Shown in pieces: positions 13,199 to 47,570 of a DNA stretch of 64,000 nucleotides (position 1 is its first letter; each line of letters begins with the position of its first letter). Origin of the DNA: an uncultured Chloroflexia bacterium (lineage in GTDB: Bacteria; Chloroflexota; Dehalococcoidia; GIF9; UBA5629); contig CAWGAF010000002.1 of assembly GCA_963820495.1 (NCBI GenBank), forward strand, positions 121,913 to 185,912. Reading direction: 5' to 3'. The notes under the pieces were generated by a model, which was given only the letters and a program-made list of their open reading frames with translations, was not told the DNA's origin and did not search any database. The position numbers were made by a program, and so were the translations under genes.

Positions 13199-13271
13199 TG
13201 GAGCTGATGGGATTCGAACCCACTACCTTCTGACTGCCAGTCAGACGCTCTCCCAATTGAGCTACAGCCCC
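13199..13271 (-). tRNA. tRNA-Ala (anticodon GGC)
   Basis: Minus-strand sequence GGGGCTGTAGCTCAATTGGGAGAGCGTCTGACTGGCAGTCAGAAGGTAGTGGGTTCGAATCCCATCAGCTCCA folds as a 73-nt cloverleaf. It has a G3:U70 identity pair, anticodon loop CTGGCAG and a TTCGAAT T-loop. No CCA is encoded. Confidence 0.93.
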
Positions 13272-18627: not shown

Positions 18628-19107
18628 ATGAATCTAGTACGCTGGAACCCTGTTCGCGAGATGGTGACTTTGGGACAAGCCATGGATAGTATGTTTGACC
18701 ATGATTACTTCCGACCGTTCTGGCTGTCTGTTGAGTCCGGTGTAAATTTAGTTCCTGCTATTGACATGTATGAGACTGATAATGAGATAGTGGTCAAGGC
18801 GACTATGCCTGGAGTGGAGGCAAAGGAGCTTGATATTAACATTACTGGCGATACTCTTACTATAAAAGGTGAGACCAGCTCAGGAAAAGAAGAGAAGAAG
18901 GAAAATTATTACTAACAGGAATGCAGCTACGGCACCTTCGCCCGTAGCATAACGCTGCCTGCTGGAGTGGAGACTGATAAGTCTGAAGCAAGCCTGGATA
19001 GTGGTATATTGACTTTGACTTTACCTAAAGCCGAAAGTGTTAAACCGAAGTCTATTAAGGTTAAGGCAAAGAAGGCTATAGAAGGCAAAAAAGAGGTTAA
19101 AAACTAG
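18628..19107 (+). pseudogene. Hsp20/alpha-crystallin small heat-shock protein interrupted by an in-frame TAA (18913-18915)
   Basis: The track ORF stops at 18915 (…KEEKKENYY*). The same frame continues QECSYGTFARSITLPAGVETDKSEASLDSGILTLTLPKAESVKPKSIKV... to TAG at 19105-19107. Together these make a normal 159-codon ACD protein. Confidence 0.8.
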
Positions 19108-28921: not shown

Positions 28922-28992
28922 TGTCATCGCGAGTCCCGATGCAATCGGGACGTGGCAATCCCGTGGGATCGATGGGAACCCACGAGTACCTA
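28922..28992 (+). repeat. REP-like structured intergenic element, copy A (starts 9 nt after mutM stop)
   Basis: Sequence is TGTCATCGCGAG, then the hairpin GTCCCGATgcaATCGGGAC, then GTGGCAATCCCGTGGGATCGATGGGAACCCACGAGTACCT. An inverted copy lies at 34032-34091. Confidence 0.75.
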
Positions 28993-29084
28993 ATGTACAA
29001 GCGTCAATGCTAATGTGGCTAGCGCATCTTATAAATATCTTAACATCATTGTGATATAATCCCTCTCAAAAAGGAGTGATTACA

Positions 29085-29480
29085 ATGGAGAAAGAGATCG
29101 TTAAAACTCCAACATTAGCTCCCCCATATGCACCATATTCGGCAGGAGTAAAAGTTAAGAAGGTAGGCACTTTTGTTTTCATTTCGGGGGTGGTTCCTAA
29201 CGATGTTGATGGGACAATCGTTTTCAAGGGAGATATCAAGAAACAAATGGAACAGGTTCTAAGTAACCTCAAGGTTACCCTAGAGGCTGCTGGGGCAACC
29301 TTCAAAGATGTTGTAGTGCTGACTACGTATGTTACAGATATGAGAGATTATTTAGCAACTAAGACGGACCATTGGTATCTTGCGCATTTTAATAACCCTG
29401 CTGAAACTCTTGTTGGGGTAAAAGACCTGGCTAATGTAGGTCAGATGTGCGAGGTTTCGGCTATGGCAGTTGTCGAATAG
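29085..29480 (+). CDS. ridA: RidA/YjgF/TdcF-family reactive intermediate deaminase
   Basis: The track start GTG 29076 overlaps the SD AAGGAG (29071-29076), so ATG 29085 is preferred. Motifs PYSAGVKV..., C-terminal CEVSAMAVV. Extended -10 TGATATAAT at 29052-29060. Confidence 0.8.
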   Translation: MEKEIVKTPTLAPPYAPYSAGVKVKKVGTFVFISGVVPNDVDGTIVFKGDIKKQMEQVLSNLKVTLEAAGATFKDVVVLTTYVTDMRDYLATKTDHWYLAHFNNPAETLVGVKDLANVGQMCEVSAMAVVE

Positions 29481-29570
29481 GTAACTGCCCCCGAGTAAAT
29501 GCAGTAACAAAATGGCTAATTGTATGAAGGCTCCATCTGTATAAGTATGAAGGTAGAAGACCTTCAACTG

Positions 29571-30281
29571 TTATTCTTGCTTCGTTATGCCTTCTGTTTC
29601 CTTGCTTACCTTCTCTACATACATACATGCTTCCTGAAAGGCAGGCAGGCCCTCTTTTTGCCACTGAAGGGTTTTTTCACCTAGAAGCTTTATAAGAAAT
29701 TCAGTCATCCCAACTGCGCTCCTCAGCAGCGCATGACATGTAGCTACAAAATGTCTTTCAACGTAATTCGCACCAAGGTTGACTCTGTTTTCTTTCCAGT
29801 TAGCTGTCAGCCCCATAGCCAATTGGCGTGGGTGCGCTATCTCACTAAGTTGTCCGTAGTTCATATCCCAATTTTTTCGGAACTTAGGCGATATGTCATT
29901 TGCCATCTGTGCAAATTTACTAAATCTTGCTTTCCCAGCCAGCAATGTCTCCACTGTTTCCGTCCTTATCTCACAATGTCTACAAGTCAGGTAGTCCTCC
30001 TCCACCGCGCGAATCAAAATTACCGCTTGACTATAGTATCCTTTCTGTAAAAGGTCATACGCACAACGCAAGGAGTTGAAACCTCGCACAACAAGTAGCA
30101 ACCACGCTAATTCCAGCCGTGGAACTTCTCCTGTCTTGAATTCGGGCAAAACTCTGAATCCAGCCAGATAACTGTTGAGTAGGTTTTTTATAAGATTAAG
30201 TTCAGCCTTCTTGTTAGTAATAGTAGTGTTTTTTACCTGTAGTTCCAATTGCTCAGGACTTGGCCAAGTTTCTACTGCCAT
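29571..30281 (-). CDS. hypothetical protein (weak resemblance to AbiV/DUF5677-type helical proteins)
   Basis: 236 aa, all-helical by composition. The segment LLQKGYYSQAVILIRAVEEDYL resembles the AbiV/DUF5677 core only from memory. It lies in the accessory block. Confidence 0.55.
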   Translation of the reverse strand: MAVETWPSPEQLELQVKNTTITNKKAELNLIKNLLNSYLAGFRVLPEFKTGEVPRLELAWLLLVVRGFNSLRCAYDLLQKGYYSQAVILIRAVEEDYLTCRHCEIRTETVETLLAGKARFSKFAQMANDISPKFRKNWDMNYGQLSEIAHPRQLAMGLTANWKENRVNLGANYVERHFVATCHALLRSAVGMTEFLIKLLGEKTLQWQKEGLPAFQEACMYVEKVSKETEGITKQE

Positions 30282-30530
30282 TTTTCCTGCCCTCCCTATA
30301 GACGGTTAGTTTACGTGTACTCTATACTGTTCAAGGATGGTAGTCAATTTCATACAGCTGCACAATGTGCCTTAATGTTCAGGCTCATCCTGTGTTAGAG
30401 ATCGATACGCCCCCCAGGCTCGTCTTGTATTGGAAGAGAGCGGAGCTTCCTTTATCCCCCTCAATAGTTTTATAATTGGAGAAAGAGGCACGAAGAACAG
30501 AGAACGTTATAAGAGATTGGGGCCAGTAGT

Positions 30531-30851
30531 ATGAATAGCTACAGTATCAAGTTAACTACCGGAGTATTAATGCTTTTAATTGTTTCTGCTTTACTTGCCC
30601 TTGTTTCCTGTGATAGTCCTCGCTATACCGCAGACCAGGTAATAGTCATCGCACAGAATTATTCCCCAGAAAAATGCTCTACGGGGGGTCATCTTGATCT
30701 TCATAGTCTTAAATGGGTGGGCGCGTCCTATTACGATCCTTCATGGGAAGCTGAATATGCCGGTAATTCTATTTGGGAAATAAGAAAGAAGTGTCAGCAG
30801 AGAGTTGTATCAACATTTTACTTTGACGAAAAAACGACAATGATTAGGTAA
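30531..30851 (+). CDS. small lipoprotein, unknown function
   Basis: 106 aa with a signal peptide and LVSC lipobox. Confidence 0.6.
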   Translation: MNSYSIKLTTGVLMLLIVSALLALVSCDSPRYTADQVIVIAQNYSPEKCSTGGHLDLHSLKWVGASYYDPSWEAEYAGNSIWEIRKKCQQRVVSTFYFDEKTTMIR

Positions 30852-31024
30852 ATATAAACCGTAGGGTCTTTTTGTTATAAAAGCTCTGTCTGTATTCCGC
30901 CTCTCTTTTCTCCCCCGCTCACTTCTACCCTAGGCCATCAATCAAATACATTTATATTCCTTCCGCTTAAAGTTATTGCCTACCATTAGGATATGTGGTA
31001 GATTGATAGCTAGGGGTGTCGTGA

Positions 31025-31564
31025 ATGAATGACGTGTTCTGGGCTGCCTTCGGAGGTGGTATTGGTGGTGGTGTTATTGTCACACTCCTAGCGATCTTTC
31101 TAAAGTGGCTTTGTGAGAGACCACTCCTCAATATTAGTATGGTAATCAAGCATAAGCCTCCACATATGTCCGTAGCTGAATTTAAAAATAAGCTTGGGAT
31201 TCCCTTTGATCAGCAAGTAAACATAAAACCCGCGGACACCAGGGTAATACTCATCAAGATAATGAATCCGCATCCGAAAGTGATTACTGTTGAGAAGTTG
31301 GGATTTAGTTATAAATCTAAGTCAGGTGACTTAGATTTTATGGAGCCGGGTCAATATGAACTCTCATACGAAATTAAAGAGAATAAGGCAGTTCAAATTG
31401 AAATGTCTGAAGCGGATTTATTTGCTCCCTTAATGGTAAAGGATAAGAAACCATCTGATATCAAATATGTGTGGGTTGAAACGCAAGCAGGTAAATTCAA
31501 AAATAAAATTGATAGAAAAACAATAGTCGAACTTGATAACTGGTTCCAAGAAAAGCAAAATTAA
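31025..31564 (+). CDS. hypothetical N-terminally anchored protein
   Basis: 179 aa: one N-terminal Gly-rich TM helix, then a beta-rich soluble part; no family recognised. Confidence 0.55.
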   Translation: MNDVFWAAFGGGIGGGVIVTLLAIFLKWLCERPLLNISMVIKHKPPHMSVAEFKNKLGIPFDQQVNIKPADTRVILIKIMNPHPKVITVEKLGFSYKSKSGDLDFMEPGQYELSYEIKENKAVQIEMSEADLFAPLMVKDKKPSDIKYVWVETQAGKFKNKIDRKTIVELDNWFQEKQN

Positions 31565-31743
31565 CTAAATTGGCTTTGCGGGTAGGTTTCAAACGTGCGA
31601 CCAACCGGTTACTAGCTCGAAACATCCGGCAGTAGTCCTATCTGCACATTCTGACGTTTTGTGTGATTTAAAACGAAACGATGGATTTTTGTCCTGCTAT
31701 ATTGCCTTGCAAGTTATTAGTTTATTAATTTGCGAAAATTTAC

Positions 31744-32313
31744 CTAGTTGCTTTTAAGCTTTTTCAGTACCCAGGCGATTTTCTTGCCAAAGTTCCAGGC
31801 TGTTGACATACCTTCTTCGTCGCTTGTCACTTCACCTTTTTCTTTGCCAAAGGCTATGTTCCAGTATGTTGATCCGGGTATTACTAACCCCAGAACTTGA
31901 AACCAGAAGGTGAGCTCCGCAAGTGTAAAGTTGTGACCAGCGCGTCGTGCTACAACCAATGGACCACCAACTTTGCCACTGAAAGGTTCGCCATTATGGC
32001 GTGATACGTAGCCCGTCCGCTCCATGAATGCTTTAATCAGGGCGGTAGCTGAGCCGTAATATACTGGAGAGGCCAGGATTATGCCGTCAGCTTCTTTCAT
32101 TTTCAGGTATATAGGAAATAAATCATCCTCAATTGAGCATCGTTCTTCTTTTACGCAGACCATACAGGCATTGCATGGTTTTATATCCAGCCCAGCCAGT
32201 CGGATGAGTTCCGTATCCAAACATTCCTCAGCGATAGCCTTAAGTGCATGAGCAGTTAATATTTCTGTGTTGCCGCTCTTTCGAGGGCTGCCAACAATAC
32301 CTATTACTTTCAT
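31744..32313 (-). CDS. iron-sulfur flavoprotein / NADPH-dependent FMN reductase family
   Basis: Preferred start is MKVIGIVGSPRKSGNT (ATG 32313, AAAGGGG SD); the track start is 32343. Compact Cys motif CNACMVCVKEERC (Cx2Cx2Cx5C). Confidence 0.75.
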   Translation of the reverse strand: MKVIGIVGSPRKSGNTEILTAHALKAIAEECLDTELIRLAGLDIKPCNACMVCVKEERCSIEDDLFPIYLKMKEADGIILASPVYYGSATALIKAFMERTGYVSRHNGEPFSGKVGGPLVVARRAGHNFTLAELTFWFQVLGLVIPGSTYWNIAFGKEKGEVTSDEEGMSTAWNFGKKIAWVLKKLKSN

Positions 32314-32483
32314 GTTACCCCTTTCAACAAGATATTCCTTCATATTATTATATAGAATGGTAGGTCATGTTCCTAATGCTGGTATGAAATTGATTAAATA
32401 TTTTGGCTTTTTGTGTGATGGGAAATGTTAATCGGTGATTTGGGTGAACTATTCTGTCGTAAAAATTTTTGATGAAAGATGAG

Positions 32484-32654
32484 TCAATGAGGGGATATAA
32501 TTTCGCCAAGCCCGAAAAACAAAACAAAAAGGCCGATTAACATAGCCAGAAAAACGAGAATAGACCGCTCTCGATTTCTTATGACGCCAATAAGTCCGGT
32601 AAGAAAGGAGAACACGCCGGAAGTTCCTGCGAGCAGCATTGGGATTGTGAGCAC
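32484..32654 (-). CDS. possible small two-TM membrane protein (51-56 aa)
   Basis: My translation in a frame not reported by the track reads (V)LTIPMLLAGTSGVFSFLTGLIGVIRNRERSILVFLAMLIGLFVLFFGLGEIISPH*. Candidate starts are GTG 32654 or ATG 32639. There is no convincing SD. Confidence 0.3.
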   Translation of the reverse strand: MLTIPMLLAGTSGVFSFLTGLIGVIRNRERSILVFLAMLIGLFVLFFGLGEIISPH

Positions 32655-33074
32655 AAAGTTGTTTAAAATGTTTCGCCACCCCGCTGCCCTGAAGCGACAA
32701 GAAGTAGGAATGCTATTAAAAGTACAAGGAAAGCTAAGGCCAATCCGGTTGACTATTTACCTAAAGGCGTTTTCGGCAAGACACTAACTCGCATGCTTTT
32801 ATTATATATGTCAACAGAATACATGCTAATAAACAGCTTTCTCTTAGCATTGCCTTGAAATGCTGGTTCTAGTACAGGCTTTTTTGTACATGCAATAGCT
32901 TCATTACTAATAGCTTCATTACTACAGGTGTATGTCAAGGTAGTCTGGATTGTTTATTAGGGGGCTAGGTCAGAGTGGTCAGGAGAGCTAACCCCCTCGA
33001 ATAAGAGGAGAGCCCGATTATGGTAAAAATAATCCGTACTTCTTATATTAAATTTTAATCAGTAATATAATTAG

Positions 33075-33581
33075 CTATTTTTTCTTCCCAACTGCTGCCG
33101 CAACTTCTATCTCTATTAACATATCAGGCAAGTCTAGTTTAATATCTTTAAGCAGAACTCCCGCTCTCCGATTTTCATTAAGGTCAGGGCAGTGTTTGGC
33201 CCAGAATTGTTCCGTGGCTTCAAACATATCCCAGTTATCATCCCTATTCACCAGAAAATAGTTGATCCAGTAGATATCCTCCAACTTAGCGCCCAAGCCC
33301 TCTAATATTTCCTTAATCCTTGTCCAGCAGGCCGTCGTTTGCTCTTTAATTCCTCCAACAACATTACCTACACGTTGTCTTTCTTCGTTCCAGTTCATTG
33401 GTTCTCTATCGGTCTCGGGATTTCTTCCTGTGTGTCCTGATAAATAGATAATCCTGTCTACCTGGTCTAGTTTCATTTCAATTGCTGCTGCCCACGGCAT
33501 CTTCCCCGCTTTATGATAGAAAGGGTAAAGCGTGAAACCGGGATACACCTTTTTCTCTTCTTTTCTCATCCAGTTTGGCAT
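33075..33581 (-). CDS. RidA/YjgF-superfamily protein (divergent, 168 aa)
   Basis: Contains IYLSGHTG...GGIKEQT...IEIEVAAAV, the C-terminal signature typical of the family; longer than canonical RidA. Confidence 0.5.
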   Translation of the reverse strand: MPNWMRKEEKKVYPGFTLYPFYHKAGKMPWAAAIEMKLDQVDRIIYLSGHTGRNPETDREPMNWNEERQRVGNVVGGIKEQTTACWTRIKEILEGLGAKLEDIYWINYFLVNRDDNWDMFEATEQFWAKHCPDLNENRRAGVLLKDIKLDLPDMLIEIEVAAAVGKKK

Positions 33582-33884
33582 TCTAACCTCCTAGTTAAAA
33601 TATGCTTTGAAGTGATTTAGCTATTTCGTAGATTTTTAAATAAGCTCCTCGCTCAGCAGCCATAAAAACTTATTGTACTATATCATAAAGAGTTGCGCTA
33701 TAAAATAGGAGAAGTCGGAGATTCTGCTATCTATAAAAACTGGCGGCTTTTACACTAATTTCGGGGCATGTTTTAGATAGTATTCTGCTTTCGCTGCGCG
33801 CATACGGTATCCGATTGGATTAGCTGAGCAGTTTAAGGTTAGGATGAAAGGGAAGCGTCAGAGGAATAGCTACAAAGTCATCCT

Positions 33885-34091
33885 TGACCTCTTGATGACA
33901 GGTTGTGTTACAAGGTAAGGTACTCGGAATCCTCCTTGAGTTTCGAGATTTCTTCATCGTCCCGACTTTATCGGGACTCCTCGCAAAGACAGAGTGGAAG
34001 GTCTTGCAATGGCAAATTTCCCCGCACAATCTAAGGTACTAGTGGGTTCCCTTTGATCCCATGGGATCACCACGCTTCTCTCGCGATGACA
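33885..34091 (-). repeat. cluster of 2-3 degenerate REP-like units; best unit (copy B) at 34032-34091 starts 9 nt after gltX stop
   Basis: The minus strand reads TGTCATCGCGAG-AGAAGC-GTGGTGATCCCATGGGATCAAAGGGAACCCACTAGTACCT. Further related units lie at ~33950-33990 (GCGAGGAGTCCCGATAAAGTCGGGACG) and ~33885-33900 (CCTGTCATCAAGAG). Confidence 0.7.
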
Positions 34092-42353: not shown

Positions 42354-43397
42354 TTATTGTTCTTCACCGCAAACCCCGGCTAAAAGATAACTTAGTACGT
42401 CGGACATATAGCCCACAGTGGAAATAGCTCTGCGGTAATCCATGCGAGTAGGGCCGATAACACCAACTGCGCCTCTGACCTTTTGGGGTATACCATATCG
42501 ACTTAGCACTAAACTTAAGTCTTTAAGCGATTCGTCGTGACTTTCCTCACCGATGACGACTTGTACTCGCTCATTTTCTAACTGCTTGTGTAGCACTGAC
42601 TTGAGCCAGTCTTTAGCTTCCATTAATTCCATCATTCTGAGCATTCTGTCTTTACCAATGAACTCAGGTTGTCCCAGCATCAGGCGTAATCCTTCAATGT
42701 AAGTTGCATGATATTCAAGCTCGTCTTCTGTAGCCATCATATCAGCTATAGCTTCGGTTATCCTCTGTTCTTCAGAAGTTGATGTAAGTTTCTTAGTTGA
42801 TACTTGGGCACTGCTCAAACCGGCATAGTTGGCGTTTAGCTTATTAGCGATACTGGTTAGTTGTTCCTGAGTTATCGGTTGGCTAAATGGTAGAAGTTGC
42901 TGTTTGAGCACCGTTTCGCTCAGTACCAGAATTAGCAAAGCTAGGAATTCGTGTAATGATACTAGCTCCAGGTGTTTAAATCGGCATTGATTTGCCTTGG
43001 GAAAAGTAACTACAGCAGCATTGCCAACAAGGCGGGCCATCAGTGCTGCTGCTAGCTTAAGCCATCTTTCGACTTCTTCTTCTACATTATGAAATGAGTC
43101 ACGAATGCGGTATTGCTCCTCCATAGGAAGCTCAATGTCTTTGGATATTGACTCGACATGGTGACGATAGCCCTTAGCTAGAGGTACACTACCGGCAGAG
43201 GTATGTGGCTTGGTGATATAGCCTTCTTTTTCCAAATATGCCATATCATTGCGGATAGTTGCTGAACTTATACCGAGTTTATAATTACGGAGGATAGTCT
43301 CTGAAGCAACAGGCAATGCCGTAGCTATATACTCAGCTACTATTATATTGAGAATAGATTTTCTTCTTGGAGTAAAACCACTTGCCAATTTTAGCAC
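42354..43397 (-). CDS. hrcA: heat-inducible transcription repressor HrcA
   Basis: 347 aa: wHTH N-terminus (RKSILNIIVAEYIATALPVAS), GAVGVIGPTRMDY. The track GTG start (43397) lies inside CIRCE. TTG at 43388 has GGAGAG 8 nt upstream and may be the real start. Confidence 0.9.
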   Translation of the reverse strand: MLKLASGFTPRRKSILNIIVAEYIATALPVASETILRNYKLGISSATIRNDMAYLEKEGYITKPHTSAGSVPLAKGYRHHVESISKDIELPMEEQYRIRDSFHNVEEEVERWLKLAAALMARLVGNAAVVTFPKANQCRFKHLELVSLHEFLALLILVLSETVLKQQLLPFSQPITQEQLTSIANKLNANYAGLSSAQVSTKKLTSTSEEQRITEAIADMMATEDELEYHATYIEGLRLMLGQPEFIGKDRMLRMMELMEAKDWLKSVLHKQLENERVQVVIGEESHDESLKDLSLVLSRYGIPQKVRGAVGVIGPTRMDYRRAISTVGYMSDVLSYLLAGVCGEEQ

Positions 43398-43417
43398 TCT
43401 CCGCTTGTGACTGCTAA
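43391..43417 (-). promoter_or_regulatory. CIRCE operator (HrcA binding site)
   Basis: TTAGCACTC-N9-GACTGCTAA matches the consensus TTAGCACTC-N9-GAGTGCTAA at 17/18 positions. It sits directly between the promoter and the hrcA start. Confidence 0.9.
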
Positions 43418-43427
43418 TTTATTATTT

Positions 43428-43456
43428 ATTATAATGTAATGCCTAGGGTATGACAA
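43428..43456 (-). promoter_or_regulatory. sigma70-type promoter of hrcA-grpE-dnaK
   Basis: The minus strand reads TTGTCA-17 nt-TATAAT (-35 at 43456-43451, -10 at 43433-43428), 10 nt upstream of CIRCE. Confidence 0.7.
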
Positions 43457-43464
43457 GTCAGAAC

Positions 43465-43494
43465 ATAAAAGGCGACTTCGAAGTCGCCTTTTAT
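43465..43494. repeat. perfect 30-nt palindrome ATAAAAGGCGACTTC/GAAGTCGCCTTTTAT (bidirectional terminator-like; resembles IS termini)
   Basis: Read directly from the sequence. The core GGCGACT...AGTCGCC equals the outermost 7 nt of both inverted repeats of the neighbouring IS1595-family element. Confidence 0.8.
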
Positions 43495-43672
43495 CTGGTT
43501 CGTTATTAAAATAAGGCGACTATACCGCCATAACAGGTATAGTCTCAAAATATCCCTCCACAAGATTACTTCAAATTAATAATACTTCAAGGGAACTTAA
43601 CTGTGCAAAAACCAACACTATATGTCGTTCTTTTGGTATTATGGATTGGGGTAATTTTGTTAGGAGGTTTTT

Positions 43673-44173
43673 ATGCCAAAATTCTCTTGGGGCAAAGTTA
43701 AGGACACGATGGGTGGAATTGGGAATAAAATTGCGAAAATGCTGGAATTATTTATCAGGGAAATCAAAGAATGGGGAATATATGTCAAGTCAAGGGGCTA
43801 TATACTCCTACGGCGTTTTTGGTATATTCTGTCAATCACGTCAGTTGCTGCATTCATTATTACTATCGTTTTTCCTTTGTTCAACATTATTCCTACGGAG
43901 ACATTACAGGCAATGAACATTATTGTTATTTTAATGCTGGCGTTAGTTCTTGGTATCCCCATTTTGAGTTTACTGGTTTACTCGTTTTCATATCGTGGCA
44001 GAAAAGTTTTTGATGAAATAATCCATTATCAAGACCAATTAGCACTAGACAAGTTTAGAGGAAAAATGATGGATGATATGAAAATAATCAAATCTAAGTT
44101 GGAAAACATTGAGAATAAACTAGACAATCATGAAGATAGATTACAGAAAATCGAAAATATTATAGACAAGTAA
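43673..44173 (+). CDS. passenger gene 1: two-TM membrane protein with C-terminal coiled coil
   Basis: 166 aa, TAGGAGGT SD. TM helices SITSVAAFIITIVFPLF and IIVILMLALVLGIPILSLLVY. The tail KLENIENKLDNHEDRLQKIENIIDK has heptad-like repeats. Confidence 0.65.
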   Translation: MPKFSWGKVKDTMGGIGNKIAKMLELFIREIKEWGIYVKSRGYILLRRFWYILSITSVAAFIITIVFPLFNIIPTETLQAMNIIVILMLALVLGIPILSLLVYSFSYRGRKVFDEIIHYQDQLALDKFRGKMMDDMKIIKSKLENIENKLDNHEDRLQKIENIIDK

Positions 44174-44174
44174 A

Positions 44175-44720
44175 ATGAATACTATTACAATAGCAACAAG
44201 AAAACCGTTTTTACATAGGACAAAGCCAATGGATGTATTATGGGGAGCTTGGGTAAAGGAACTCAGAGATAACCCTAGTGACCTACGTGCCTTCGACGTA
44301 ATTGGTATTTATGACACCATTCACAAAAAAGGAAAGCCCGATTTCCCTTTTACAACTGATTTACAAATTGTCCTAGCTTATAGGGTGACGGATAGTTCAG
44401 AATTTGGTCAAATATATCAACTTACTTTCGATTTCAGAGACCAGTTCGGAGTTAATCAAATTTTCAAAATGAACGACCAGATTATTGCTTACGAAGGCGA
44501 TATTCCTGTTCAATTATACGAAACATATGAATTTAAGAATGTTACGATAAAAGAGCCAGACTTCTATAAGCTAAGTGTTTTACTTGATGGACACTTTATA
44601 CTATATATTCCTTTACGGATTAATGCACCCAAAATGGTGATTGTTGAAGATGCAGAGAGACAGATTACAACAGAATTATGGCCTGAAGATTATGATGAGT
44701 ACAAGAAAAAGGGGAAATAA
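44175..44720 (+). CDS. passenger gene 2: soluble hypothetical protein
   Basis: 181 aa; starts 1 nt after the gene 1 stop; beta-rich; no family recognised. Confidence 0.6.
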   Translation: MNTITIATRKPFLHRTKPMDVLWGAWVKELRDNPSDLRAFDVIGIYDTIHKKGKPDFPFTTDLQIVLAYRVTDSSEFGQIYQLTFDFRDQFGVNQIFKMNDQIIAYEGDIPVQLYETYEFKNVTIKEPDFYKLSVLLDGHFILYIPLRINAPKMVIVEDAERQITTELWPEDYDEYKKKGK

Positions 44721-44723
44721 GTT

Positions 44724-44963
44724 ATGTTCAAAAAGAGGGTAACTCAATTTACAATAAAGCAAAGAGCTGGCGAATCGCCGGATATATTAGTCACTAGAAC
44801 GCAGTATATACCTATTCCTCTTAAGCATTCAAAGACAAAGGGGAAAAACAAGCCTATTGACTACGGTATTACAGAGGAACAATTCGATACTATTCTAAAA
44901 AAGGCAGCACAACCAACTAAAAAGCTTAAAACTGATTTGGAAAAATTAGATAAGGGTAGTTGA
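44724..44963 (+). CDS. passenger gene 3: small basic hypothetical protein
   Basis: 79 aa, AAGGGGA SD, Lys-rich. Confidence 0.55.
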   Translation: MFKKRVTQFTIKQRAGESPDILVTRTQYIPIPLKHSKTKGKNKPIDYGITEEQFDTILKKAAQPTKKLKTDLEKLDKGS

Positions 44964-44964
44964 A

Positions 44965-45285
44965 GTGAGAATCTTTGGCTGGTTATTACTTTTCATTGGG
45001 TTGGTTTCACTTTGGTTGTTATGGCCTTACATAGTTGGATTTTCTGGGCTCACTATTCCTACTGTTACAACTGATAACGGGGTTATGAGGTATGTACCCG
45101 GGGCAATTGTACAGTATAAAATACCTTTTTGGATGATTTTGCCACCATGTTTGTGTATTGGATTTGGAATTTGGTTAGGAGTTCGCAAACGCCAAAAACC
45201 AAAATATACTGTTTGCCCCCATTGTCATTCGCCAATCAGTTTGGAACAGAGGTTTTGTATTAACTGTGGGAGTAAATTAGATTGA
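44965..45285 (+). CDS. passenger gene 4: two-TM membrane protein with C-terminal zinc ribbon
   Basis: 106 aa; GTG start 1 nt after the gene 3 stop; CPHCHSPISLEQRFCINCGSKL. Confidence 0.6.
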   Translation: MRIFGWLLLFIGLVSLWLLWPYIVGFSGLTIPTVTTDNGVMRYVPGAIVQYKIPFWMILPPCLCIGFGIWLGVRKRQKPKYTVCPHCHSPISLEQRFCINCGSKLD

Positions 45286-45288
45286 GAA

Positions 45289-46137
45289 TTAAATCTGATT
45301 CAGAAAAAGCTCGAACATTGACCTTTCATCAAAACGATGGTTATAACGGAATGCATACTCATTCAAATAAGATTGTAAGTATTTAGGTGAAACAGAATGA
45401 TAAACGCCATTGATACCACGTTTAATTTGAGACCAGAAACCCTCGATATTGTTGACGTGGGCTTTACCACGGACGTATTGCTTGGCTCTGTGATTGATTC
45501 TTTGATGATTAAATCCGATATAAGTAAGATGGTCGTAAGTAGGGAATTCATCAGTATAAATGATGGTATTCTTGGATATATTCCTGTTAATCATAGGGGT
45601 TATCGTAGACCGTTTAGCATCGGGGACAACGGAAGCCATGACTTTGCCTTTTCTTTGGACAAGGCCGACTACAACGGTTTTACCCTGTGCCCCACGACCA
45701 CGTGTGCCATGACGAGCACCGCCGACGTAGGTTTCGTCAATTTCAACTTCGCCAGTAAATATAGAGGATTCTTCACTAAGAAGTGTTCTAATCTGTTTAA
45801 ACATTCTCCAAGCAGTTTTATACGTAACGCCTGTCTCTCTTTGAATCTGTTTAGCAGAAATACCGCATCGAGTAGAAGCCATACGATGTATAACTTCAAA
45901 CCAAGTTCTAAGTGGAGTAGCGGACTTATGAAAAATTGTGCCAGCAGTCGGGTAAACTTGGTGATTGCAGTAATCGCAATTATAGCAATGGCGATTAGCA
46001 ATTTTATGATGTTTGGTTACTCGCTGGCAGTTCGGACAATAAATCCCGTCTGGATAGCGTTGATTCTTAATCCATTCAAGGCAAGTATCGTCATCTGGAA
46101 ACTTTGCGTCAAAATCATTTGTCGTAAACTTTTGCAT
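45289..46137 (-). CDS. IS1595-family DDE transposase with N-terminal zinc-ribbon
   Basis: 282 aa: CPNCQRVTKHHKI...YNCDYCNHQV ribbon, EIDETYVGG, IIYTDEFPTYD, VNNIEGFWSQIKR. Confidence 0.88.
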   Translation of the reverse strand: MQKFTTNDFDAKFPDDDTCLEWIKNQRYPDGIYCPNCQRVTKHHKIANRHCYNCDYCNHQVYPTAGTIFHKSATPLRTWFEVIHRMASTRCGISAKQIQRETGVTYKTAWRMFKQIRTLLSEESSIFTGEVEIDETYVGGARHGTRGRGAQGKTVVVGLVQRKGKVMASVVPDAKRSTITPMINRNISKNTIIYTDEFPTYDHLTYIGFNHQRINHRAKQYVRGKAHVNNIEGFWSQIKRGINGVYHSVSPKYLQSYLNEYAFRYNHRFDERSMFELFLNQI

Positions 46138-46160
46138 TTCTCTATCCCCCTTACACAGGT

Positions 46161-46189
46161 ATTATATCATAAAACTTACCTGTTGTCAA
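46161..46189 (-). promoter_or_regulatory. consensus sigma70 promoter for the transposase inside the right IS end
   Basis: The minus strand reads TTGACA-17 nt-TATAAT (-35 at 46189-46184, -10 at 46166-46161), followed by the AAGGGGGA SD and ATG 46137. Confidence 0.65.
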
Positions 46190-46213
46190 GGGATAGTCGC
46201 CTAAAATAAAATA

Positions 46214-47383
46214 CTATTTCTCAGTATAAGTAACTTCTAGTTTAACTTCTGACCACTCAATCCATTCAGCTTTATTGTTAGCATTGTATGGTTTCATAAA
46301 CAAGGCTTCTGCCTGAAAGCGGGTGGCGGCTCCATCAGCAAGTTGGCCCACCTCTGGAGTCACATCTAGCACAGTCGGCGGTTCATAAGAGCTCATAATT
46401 GCTTTCTGAAGTTGGCCGCCTGTTATGGTGAAATCAGGAAGTCTATCGACATAGCGTACCGTCCATAATTTTAGTCCACCAAGTGATTCAGCTCCGGTCT
46501 CAAGAAAAGGATTGCCGGATATAGACCTTGTAGTGAATATCAACTTGGCATCTTTCACCTCGGTTCCATTGAGGCTCCATATGTTAAAGCTCCAAAAGGC
46601 GCGGTAACCGACATTCTTCTCATCATCGCCAGCTCTAGTTCTAGAGTTGTCCTTGTCACCTTTTGAGTCTACAGTGCCTGTTTCTTCTTGGACTACATTA
46701 ATAGTAACAGTCTTAGTTGCTGTAGCTACGGTAACGACAACATTACCTTGAGTCTCTCCGCCTTTGCCATCGCTGACTAGGACTGTAATATTGAATGTAC
46801 CACCTTTGTTGGGGGGAAACCAGGTAACTTGATTACCTACGCCTGTAATGTTACCATCAGTGACTTTCCAGCTATACTTAATTGCATCGCCATCAGGGTC
46901 GCTAGCGACGCAAGTTATCAGAGAACTGCCACCGGGACCTATAACGGATGGATTAGCAGAGACGGATACTTGTGGATTATTATTAGCCCCAACGCTTAGG
47001 TCTAATGACTTTTGTGTAGAAGCGCCTTTGCCATCGTCTACTGTGGCTGTAATAGTATATGTCCCATATTGCTCGGGAGCTTGCCAGGTAACTATATGAC
47101 TAGTACCGCTGAAGTTGCCTCCAGTAGCTGACCAGGTGAAATTCAATTTGTCGTCATTCGGATCTGAGGCAATGCACTGAATTTCAACCGTGCCTGAAGG
47201 ATAAATTTGTGTCTGTGCTGGAGTCAGGCTTGAGATAACTGGAGGCTGGTTGCCAGTAGGAGCGGGAGACGGTGTTGGTGCTGGAGGTGCTTGACTGGGA
47301 CCGCATGCGCTGCCTAATGCGATTACTGCAATCAGTATCAGAAAAATAATGGCAAATTTTACTATTGGACTACTCTTATTCAT
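46214..47383 (-). CDS. secreted/lipoprotein with two PKD/Ig-like repeats and an uncharacterised C-terminal domain
   Basis: Preferred start is MNKSSPIVKF... (ATG 47383, AAAGGGGA SD); the track start is 47398. Signal peptide ends ...ALGSAC. Two ~90-aa repeats (IQCIASDPNDDKLNFTWSATGG; ITCVASDPDGDAIKYSWKVTDG). Confidence 0.75.
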   Translation of the reverse strand: MNKSSPIVKFAIIFLILIAVIALGSACGPSQAPPAPTPSPAPTGNQPPVISSLTPAQTQIYPSGTVEIQCIASDPNDDKLNFTWSATGGNFSGTSHIVTWQAPEQYGTYTITATVDDGKGASTQKSLDLSVGANNNPQVSVSANPSVIGPGGSSLITCVASDPDGDAIKYSWKVTDGNITGVGNQVTWFPPNKGGTFNITVLVSDGKGGETQGNVVVTVATATKTVTINVVQEETGTVDSKGDKDNSRTRAGDDEKNVGYRAFWSFNIWSLNGTEVKDAKLIFTTRSISGNPFLETGAESLGGLKLWTVRYVDRLPDFTITGGQLQKAIMSSYEPPTVLDVTPEVGQLADGAATRFQAEALFMKPYNANNKAEWIEWSEVKLEVTYTEK

Positions 47384-47570
47384 ACTATCCCCTTTCATAT
47401 GTATTTATATTTAATTTAAATGGAGCAATATATGACTAGGTAACTTTTGGATAAAGTATAGCATACTTGCTTGAGTTGTTGATATAATTTAGTGCTGGAG
47501 TTTTTATTACAGGGTGACTCTTTATTATGCGAAATTGAGCGCGACTATAATAGACGTATATTAAGGCTAG

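Follow-up and report, generated by a model that had tools for sequence, protein, structure and literature searches.

The window analyzed here, a stretch of 64,000 nucleotides from contig CAWGAF010000002.1 of an uncultured Chloroflexia bacterium, contains four passenger genes and a convergent transposase gene that lie together between a gene for a PKD-domain lipoprotein and the heat-shock regulator gene hrcA. The group is enclosed by two terminal inverted repeats (IRs), each flanked by one copy of an 8-bp target-site duplication (TSD), and we identify it with high confidence as a complete, single-transposase, passenger-carrying element of the IS1595 family of insertion sequences (ISs), spanning window positions 43515–46201 at the insertion site described below, in a Dehalococcoidia-like genome. 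The open reading frames (ORFs) and other features of the element are as follows.

43507–43514, unstranded: left TSD copy, TAAAATAA, read directly; the same 8 bp stand at the right end
43515–43539, plus strand: distal (cargo-side) IR, GGCGACTATACCGCCATAACAGGTA, matching the opposite end at 20/25 positions
43673–44173, plus strand: ORF1, 166 residues, with an AGGAGG ribosome-binding site; hydrophobic segments at about 48–76 and about 78–107, then a coiled-coil-like helical tail
44175–44720, plus strand: ORF2, 181 residues, DUF6941 β-sandwich protein (Pfam DUF6941, E-value 1.1e-09)
44724–44963, plus strand: ORF3, 79 residues, small basic protein, conserved partner of ORF2
44965–45285, plus strand: ORF4, 106 residues, two hydrophobic segments and a C-terminal zinc ribbon (Pfam Zn_Ribbon_1, 8.7e-08)
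45289–46137, minus strand: intact IS1595-family transposase, 282 residues (ORF; Pfam and NCBIfam)
46142–46196, minus strand: predicted fold-back hairpin (repeat search and RNA folding), formed only in RNA entering from outside
46189→46161, minus strand: transposase promoter TTGACA-17-TATAAT, 12/12 consensus positions, with an extended −10 TG
46177–46201, minus strand: transposase-proximal IR, GGCGACTATCCCTTGACAACAGGTA, read as reverse complement; 20/25 against the distal IR
46202–46209, unstranded: right TSD copy, TAAAATAA, read directly

Boundaries of the element

The element measures 2687 bp and ends in imperfect 25-bp IRs that match at 20/25 positions. Both IRs begin GGCGACTAT and have positions 1–12 and 19–25 in common, and as a pair they form the longest inverted repeat that a repeat search detects in the region. 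The termini, their degree of matching and the flanking 8-bp duplication had been proposed from a first reading of the sequence, and each was found exactly as described. The combined IR and TSD score of the element is 28, whereas 40 random placements in the window scored at most 24, bar one; this exceptional placement, also at 28, is a separate real inverted repeat (28951–28991/34034–34074). The element, of which the window contains a single copy, has a G+C content of 37.1%, uniformly low over the whole 2.7 kb, compared with 44.4% elsewhere in the window.

The four plus-strand ORFs occupy 43673–45285 and converge on the transposase gene. No second internal IR was found: inside the element, the terminal 12-mer is matched at 9/12 positions at best. 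The original prediction of four convergent genes in place of an IR after the transposase stop is borne out. A third IR-like 12-mer at 18798 was set aside as a chance match inside an Hsp20-like coding sequence.

Insertion between the PKD gene and hrcA

The sequences that surround the element belong to two minus-strand genes and their control signals.

42354–43397, minus strand: hrcA
43417→43391, minus strand: controlling inverted repeat of chaperone expression (CIRCE) operator, TTAGCAGTC-N9-GAGTGCTAA, read directly, with the consensus taken from established knowledge
43456→43428, minus strand: hrcA promoter TTGTCA-17-TATAAT (promoter scan)
43465–43494, unstranded: native terminator of the PKD gene, a perfect 15+15 GC-rich hairpin with A/T runs (repeat search)
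46214–47398, minus strand: PKD/Big_9-domain lipoprotein gene (Pfam)

The stop codon of the PKD gene (46214–46216) lies 4 nt from the right TSD copy, so that the insertion is placed 4 nt after this stop, 12 nt before the terminator hairpin and 58 nt from the −35 box of hrcA. An insertion about 60 bp upstream of the hrcA promoter had been predicted; the distance agrees, and the description is refined in that the target also falls in the 3′ untranslated region of the PKD gene.

The closest relatives of HrcA are only 62–67% identical, and an empty site can therefore be compared at the level of synteny only. In three related loci (L089, L090, and L092) the genes orf124, PKD, hrcA, and grpE follow in this order, the PKD-hrcA spacer is about 135–245 bp long and free of a transposase, and an equivalent hairpin separates the PKD stop from the hrcA promoter. 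When the element and one TSD copy (2695 bp) are subtracted from the window, a spacer of 121 bp is left in which the stop codon, about 30 nt, the GC-rich terminator hairpin, a TTGACA-type promoter and CIRCE follow one another in the same order as in the relatives. This shared layout supports the element boundaries at the synteny level, where the original prediction might have been contradicted by empty sites and is instead in agreement with them; the exact 24-nt empty-site junction was not found in metagenomes.

Because the element separates the PKD gene from its terminator, PKD transcripts should enter the transposase end. The effect on hrcA is probably small, since the hrcA promoter is still separated from the element by the native terminator. 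The distal IR, read on the minus strand (43529–43515) with its T-rich flank, also scores as a terminator-like hairpin, and hrcA would be insulated by the retained native terminator together with this second hairpin. In the same interval, plus-strand promoter-like sites at 43405–43435 (GTGACT-17-TATAAT, 10/12) overlap the hrcA promoter and CIRCE and face the element, with the bidirectional-looking hairpin 43465–43494 between them and the element.

The transposase and its family

The transposase matches Pfam DDE_Tnp_IS1595 (PF12762; 3.4e-46, 157.5 bits, cut-off 27) and NCBIfam transpos_IS1595 (NF033547; 4.9e-66, 222.7 bits, cut-off 75), and its N terminus matches Zn_ribbon_IS1595 (PF12760; 4.8e-08, 33.3 bits, cut-off 25.4). 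In an alignment of the window sequence with 55 relatives, 56 clade members in all, the zinc-ligand cysteines C34, C37, C54, and C57 are at least 98% conserved, D134, D196, K239, R264, and R268 are invariant (56/56) and E232 is present in 54/56. The window transposase contains the pattern D, D, E followed seven residues on by K (E232, K239), from which D134, D196, E232, and K239 are the putative catalytic residues, as well as an E260-x3-R264 motif. The ratio of nonsynonymous to synonymous substitution rates (dN/dS) of the gene against sister elements is 0.04–0.08, with dS saturated. The protein forms a singleton cluster in public data, and look-ups gave no exact-protein match to the transposase or to HrcA.

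The original prediction of a transposase at 45289–46137, served by a consensus promoter at the right end, is confirmed, and the −35 hexamer proves to be part of the IR: it coincides with positions 13–18 of the proximal repeat, where TTGACA is near-invariant in relatives. A strong ribosome-binding site, AAGGGGGA, precedes the ATG. The transposase would be expressed from this promoter of its own, whose −35 box belongs to the terminal IR, and movement would follow the DDE-type scheme, in which transposase binds the two ends and cuts the target with an 8-bp stagger.

IS1595-family elements generate 8-bp TSDs, prefer AT-rich targets and encode a transposase with a zinc finger and a DDE_Tnp_IS1595 domain (PMC8101967, PMC12561309); the N-terminal zinc finger occurs in all groups except IS1016 (PMC8101967). 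Passenger-carrying "transporter IS" (tIS) were first described for this family, according to the passage of PMC3129680 that cites Siguier et al. (2009). All family features that we examined in the window element, namely the DDE domain, the zinc ribbon, the 8-bp TSD, the GG ends and the catalytic pattern, were found and, as sequence characters, point to the IS1595 family. The assignment, the duplication, the GG ends and the presence of passengers had all been anticipated, and they are upheld by the domains and by the relatives described below. The element is a tIS: its passengers lie within one IR pair, with one transposase and without flanking IS copies. A compound transposon was considered and rejected, given a single transposase gene with a single IR pair and the absence of any further copy from the window.

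The element thus resembles the known IS1595 tIS in its single zinc-ribbon and DDE_Tnp_IS1595 transposase, its AT-rich 8-bp TSD, its short IRs starting with GG and the location of its passengers between the transposase and one IR. It differs in that its sequence is new, the nearest transposases being 84% identical and coming from metagenomic elements. The length of 2.7 kb lies within the range of the ISNwi1+ and ISPna2+ subgroups, and the GGCGACTAT ends, the D-D-E-K pattern and E260-R264 resemble the ISNwi1 features (ggnnatTAT; DDEK+ER4); ISNwi1 is a candidate subgroup for the element. To our knowledge, a cargo of DUF6941, small basic and membrane/zinc-ribbon ORFs is not among the described tIS passengers.

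Sister elements with the same cargo core

A search with ORF2 recovered six homologues of 49–78% identity, which led to sister elements of the following dimensions.

L081, 7133–9947: 2815 bp, TSD TAACTTTT
L082 (127–3241) and L083 (32–3146): 3115 bp, TSD TTAAAATA, inside an HtrA/DegP-like protease ORF
L085: 2759 bp, TSD TAATATAA

The sister contigs share one layout, in which small ORFs, the DUF6941 gene, an ORF of about 80 residues and a further ORF are followed by a convergent IS1595 transposase gene. The sister transposases are 73–84% identical to that of the window, and their ORF2 counterparts are 53–73% identical (53–78% for all homologues that lie inside sister IS1595 elements). ORF3 is conserved at 65–82% in L081, L082/L084, and L085, always directly downstream of the DUF6941 gene; a counterpart of ORF4 is found only in L085, at the same position and 48% identical, and upstream of ORF2 stand unrelated ORFs for small membrane proteins. 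The distal ends of the sisters share GGnnACTATrCC...ACAGGTA. In L082 and L083 the interrupted protease reads ...DLAVIKI on one side of the insertion and NATNLPAA... on the other. Over 3031 nt the L082 element is 100% identical to that of L084, yet their left flanks differ, the L084 flank being GC-rich, which is direct evidence for recent movement of this sister element.

The dN/dS of ORF2 is 0.14–0.29, with dS saturated, and the low values for both the transposase gene and ORF2 reflect purifying selection and imply that the cargo core has long been kept with the transposase. At the level of sequence comparison, the lineage is seen to have co-inherited DUF6941 and the small basic protein with its transposase, the flanking membrane and zinc-ribbon ORFs being variable. 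PADLOC gave no matches for the variable ORFs of the sister elements.

Among 1.84 billion clusters, the DUF6941 subfamily has no more than 31 representatives. Its distant members in L168–L170 also adjoin an IS1595-type transposase gene, if the truncated ORF of L170 is, as we infer, such a gene. Two of these loci, L168 (934–2187) and L169 (927–2180), contain a 417-residue N6_N4-methyltransferase/Mrr_cat fusion between cargo and transposase, along with DUF6941 and a 92-residue ORF; the fusion resembles a restriction-modification enzyme. The most distant ORF2 homologue (49%), at L086:280–1658 and L087:1–1421, has a start/stop overlap with a different upstream gene, which encodes an IS6/IS240-type (rve/DDE_Tnp_IS240) transposase in L086 and an unannotated 299-residue ORF, truncated by the contig end, in L087. 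This change of upstream gene suggests that capture of the DUF6941 module is not confined to a single IS family. An IR pattern search did not find element ends in L168–L170 or L086/L087.

A wider clade of passenger-carrying elements

A scan of species-representative genomes yielded 80 loci with transposases 54–70% identical to the window query, most of them from metagenome-assembled genomes of Dehalococcoidia/Chloroflexota and Acidobacteriota; L035:6851–7933, L017:6933–7847, and L004:6824–9250, all on the minus strand, are examples. An unbiased search for the best IR and TSD combination around each transposase, with thresholds of at least 18/25 for the IRs and at least 7/8 for the TSD, delimited 55 elements among the 80 loci, 52 of them with perfect 8-mer TSDs. 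The end pattern proposed for the window copy therefore recurs elsewhere, both in these loci and in the sister elements with their own perfect 8-bp TSDs. The TSDs of the related elements are 79% A+T and the clade ends follow the consensus GGyrAnTATCCCTTGACA..GTA. The distal IR differs from the proximal one at positions 13–18, the −35 box, in most relatives, so that 20/25 matching in the window represents the normal state and not decay.

The 55 elements are 1701–6450 bp long (median 2267). With 1.7 kb as the lower limit, the clade contains no bare IS of about 1 kb and is made up of tIS with passengers. In nearly all of them the main additional ORF begins beside the distal IR and runs towards the transposase gene in convergent orientation, and none of the passenger ORFs of the window recurs in the 55. 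The elements in L049, L050, and L053 contain nested ISs of other families.

The cargo of the 55 elements comprises 96 ORFs, which were surveyed with Pfam and with PADLOC (E-value at most 1e-5). Pfam matches include trypsin-like peptidases (10), PIN (2), DUF1828 (2), an N6-methylase/HsdR-N protein and the nested IS elements. About a third of the ORFs matched PADLOC models: PDC-S45 (22), PDC-S42 (4, with 3 more matching a second model), PDC-M24B (2), LmuA (2) and components of type I and IIG restriction-modification systems. In this count the PDC models are predicted, unvalidated candidates and one family dominates, PDC-S45, a family of about 350 residues found in Acidobacteriota that partly matches the trypsin-like peptidases. 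Seven of the ten cargo proteins of the closest Dehalococcoidia relatives had no PADLOC match. Literature searches on IS1595 elements as defence carriers, on the biology of DUF6941 and PDC-S45 and on the ISNwi1 subgroup table were unproductive.

The clade recalls the Tn7-like carriers of defence genes in that variable cargo stands beside a conserved transposition module and in the third of its cargo ORFs that match PADLOC models. It differs from them in the far smaller size of the elements (1.7–6.5 kb), with one transposase and no targeting machinery, and in the nature of the matches, which are mostly to predicted candidates and, for the window cargo, amount to one weak match.

Passenger genes of the window element

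The weak match concerns ORF1, which hits the PADLOC model RTasSLATT over residues 52–155 (2e-05, 22.4 bits) and has no Pfam SLATT match. No homologue of ORF1 other than itself was found among 5.8 billion proteins, and the window element contains no reverse transcriptase, SMODS or other SLATT-type partner. ORF2 is called in public data as a protein of 163 residues that starts at Met19 (window 44229). An AlphaFold2 model from a 31-sequence alignment is an all-β sandwich with a predicted local distance difference test score (pLDDT) of 89.4, an earlier model from 7 sequences having been too poor (pLDDT 60). In the PDB it matches generic β-sandwiches of the UNC119/RhoGDI/Wzt-CBD kind at template modelling (TM) scores below 0.5, a likeness that we do not take as functional evidence, and among viral structures it comes closest to an Anoxybacillus phage protein that is itself uncharacterised (target TM score 0.84). 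ORF3 has no family match in Pfam, PHROGs, PADLOC, or NCBIfam, and PHROGs and NCBIfam returned nothing useful for the window cargo. The stop codons of ORF4 and of the transposase gene are 3 nt apart with no terminator between them, so convergent transcriptional interference between cargo and transposase is likely.

The role that we judge most likely for the window cargo, and put forward only tentatively, is a conflict-related one acting at the membrane. Acting at the membrane as one module, its products would favour the element or the host when these come into conflict with phages or other mobile elements; of all steps of the proposed mechanism, this one is the weakest. Because most cargo proteins of the closest relatives (7/10) and the variable ORFs of the sisters are without a PADLOC match, we do not claim the window cargo as a defence system. 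A bolder proposal takes the clade, abundant in Dehalococcoidia and Acidobacteriota, as a dedicated miniature vehicle for anti-phage and conflict genes. The window cassette of a SLATT-like protein with two transmembrane segments, DUF6941, the small basic protein and a transmembrane zinc-ribbon protein would then constitute a novel defence or exclusion system that acts at the membrane and spreads on the transposon, with the convergent layout coupling cargo expression to transposition control. We consider this proposal unlikely as a whole, if worth stating.

A predicted fold-back hairpin in the transposase leader

RNA that contains the proximal IR is predicted to fold back on the transposase leader with a minimum free energy of −22.1 kcal/mol (z −4.46). 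Two helices make up this fold: one joins CUAUCCCUU of the IR to GGGGGAUAG of the Shine-Dalgarno region, and the other joins IR positions 19–25 (ACAGGUA) to UACCUGU just past the −10 box; RNA that begins after the −10 box is predicted to be unstructured. The same two-helix fold is predicted in L081, L082, and L085 (−19.5 to −23.2 kcal/mol), with a compensatory change in L082, where ACAAGUA faces UACUUGU. Among 17 leaders of the Dehalococcoidia clade, 71% of inner-helix cells pair, against 15–51% with a slid partner, and hairpin pair 22-44 alternates between CG, UA, and GC; overall the covariation is modest. Perfect complementarity between IR and leader is found in 4 of the 56 elements where 0.2 are expected (maximum 3 in 2000 permutations), which indicates that it is real, yet limited to a subclade.

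Read-through transcripts from the PKD gene would carry the IR, which would pair with the Shine-Dalgarno sequence and block translation of the transposase, and transcripts from the element's own promoter would leave the ribosome-binding site free. Fold-back protection against read-through activation of the transposase, as it emerges from these predicted structures, is moderately supported. The IR thus appears to be multi-purpose, serving as transposase site, −35 box and anti-Shine-Dalgarno sequence. IS10 and IS50 are known for fold-back protection from read-through activation. As in those elements, the terminal-repeat sequence of the incoming transcript is complementary to the ribosome-binding site of the transposase gene, the element's own transcript starts downstream of the complementary segment, and the −35 box is embedded in the IR. 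The window element differs from them in its transposase family, in having a structure that is predicted only, with a complementarity that could equally be a DNA operator, and in keeping the trait in its own lineage and some near relatives, not clade-wide.

Mobility of the window copy and alternative readings

The narrowest alternative would confine the mobile unit to an IS of about 1 kb, leave the four plus-strand ORFs as resident host genes and ascribe the left IR and TSD to chance. The imperfect IRs (20/25), the orphan status of ORF1 and the commonness of TAAAATAA, an AT-rich 8-mer that occurs 7 times in the window on both strands, could be cited for it. We nevertheless regard it as very improbable, as nothing IR-like lies past the transposase stop (best interior match 9/12), the low G+C content is uniform over the 2.7 kb, all 55 clade members reach at least 1.7 kb, ORF2, ORF3 and the distal IR accompany the transposase at four other sites, and subtraction of 2695 bp restores a PKD-hrcA spacer of 121 bp next to the 135–245 bp of relatives. 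It is also improbable that ORF2 and ORF3 form an accessory module of the transposon, such as a transposition regulator, a target-choice factor or an addiction module, and are not cargo in the usual sense. Such a module would agree with the small size of the subfamily (31 representatives among 1.84 billion), with co-divergence with the transposase under purifying selection, and with the position of 8 of the 10 recovered subfamily loci beside an IS1595-type transposase (L081–L085 and L168–L170, the last on its presumed identity). Against this, the gene lies beside an IS6/IS240-type or an unannotated gene in the other two (L086, L087), the ORF2 fold is also found in phage proteins, profile searches found no DNA-binding or nucleotide-binding domain, and 55 elements with the same ends move with other cargo and without ORF2 or ORF3, so that movement does not depend on the pair.

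A correctly delimited IS1595 transposon might also be fixed and immobile in this genome, either silenced or mobile only with outside help, and to this we assign an appreciable, though minor, probability. The copy is single in the 64-kb window, its transposase is a singleton cluster whose nearest relatives are 84% identical, and convergent cargo transcription and the fold-back hairpin would both keep transposase levels low. Immobility is harder to reconcile with a perfect TSD, a consensus promoter and an uninterrupted ORF that retains every catalytic residue, and with ends that share the pattern of a sister element found 100% identical at two sites. The original prediction of a recent, probably still mobile insertion is supported by the perfect TSD, the intact ORF, the strong promoter, the low G+C content and the mobile sister; it is not supported by a second copy or a same-species empty site. 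On these sequence features, a recent and still mobile window copy is plausible.

Several observations weigh against our interpretation of a mobile, cargo-bearing and fold-back-protected element. No second copy of the exact element and no same-species empty site were found, so that the window copy is only putatively mobile at present. The ends differ at 5/25 positions, a pattern that the demonstrably mobile sister elements share. The promoter scan did not identify a promoter for the cargo genes, and a cargo role is supported no further than by the weak SLATT-like match, ORF1 being an orphan and ORF2 a generic sandwich. The IR/leader complementarity is restricted to a subclade, with 4/56 perfect and 11/56 at 6/7 or better, and it could act as a DNA operator palindrome that brackets the promoter instead of acting in RNA.

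Other features of the window

The inverted repeat detected by the random placements is a 41-nt pair, 85% complementary, at 28951–28991 and 34034–34074, with an adjacent 22-nt pair at 28931–28952 and 33958–33979. These repeats flank about 5 kb with four ORFs, and the 18-mer GGGAACCCACNAGTACCT occurs only at both sites (0 expected). The repeats of 28931–34074 could mark the two ends of a further mobile or invertible segment, or they could represent an intergenic repeat or miniature inverted-repeat transposable element present as inverted copies. An Hsp20/α-crystallin-like ORF at 18628–19104 on the plus strand has a good ribosome-binding site and an in-frame TAA at codon 96 (18913–18915; ...KENYY-stop-QECSYGTFARSITLP...); it could represent a pseudogene, a sequencing error or a read-through site. 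An Rfam scan returned only a transfer RNA, at 13199–13271.

Implications

The exact boundaries of a mobile element are now set for annotation of the source genome: four "hypothetical" genes near hrcA are imported cargo and not part of a heat-shock locus, and the PKD-lipoprotein gene is flagged as having lost its terminator. Current understanding of IS biology is not overturned. Beyond this genome, the element points to a large clade of small IS1595 elements with passengers that occurs in uncultured Chloroflexota and Acidobacteriota and is uncatalogued. The cargo slots of this clade, with many uncharacterised and predicted defence genes, offer a compact source for the mining of new conflict systems, and the clade itself provides a simple model for the retention of cargo by an IS.

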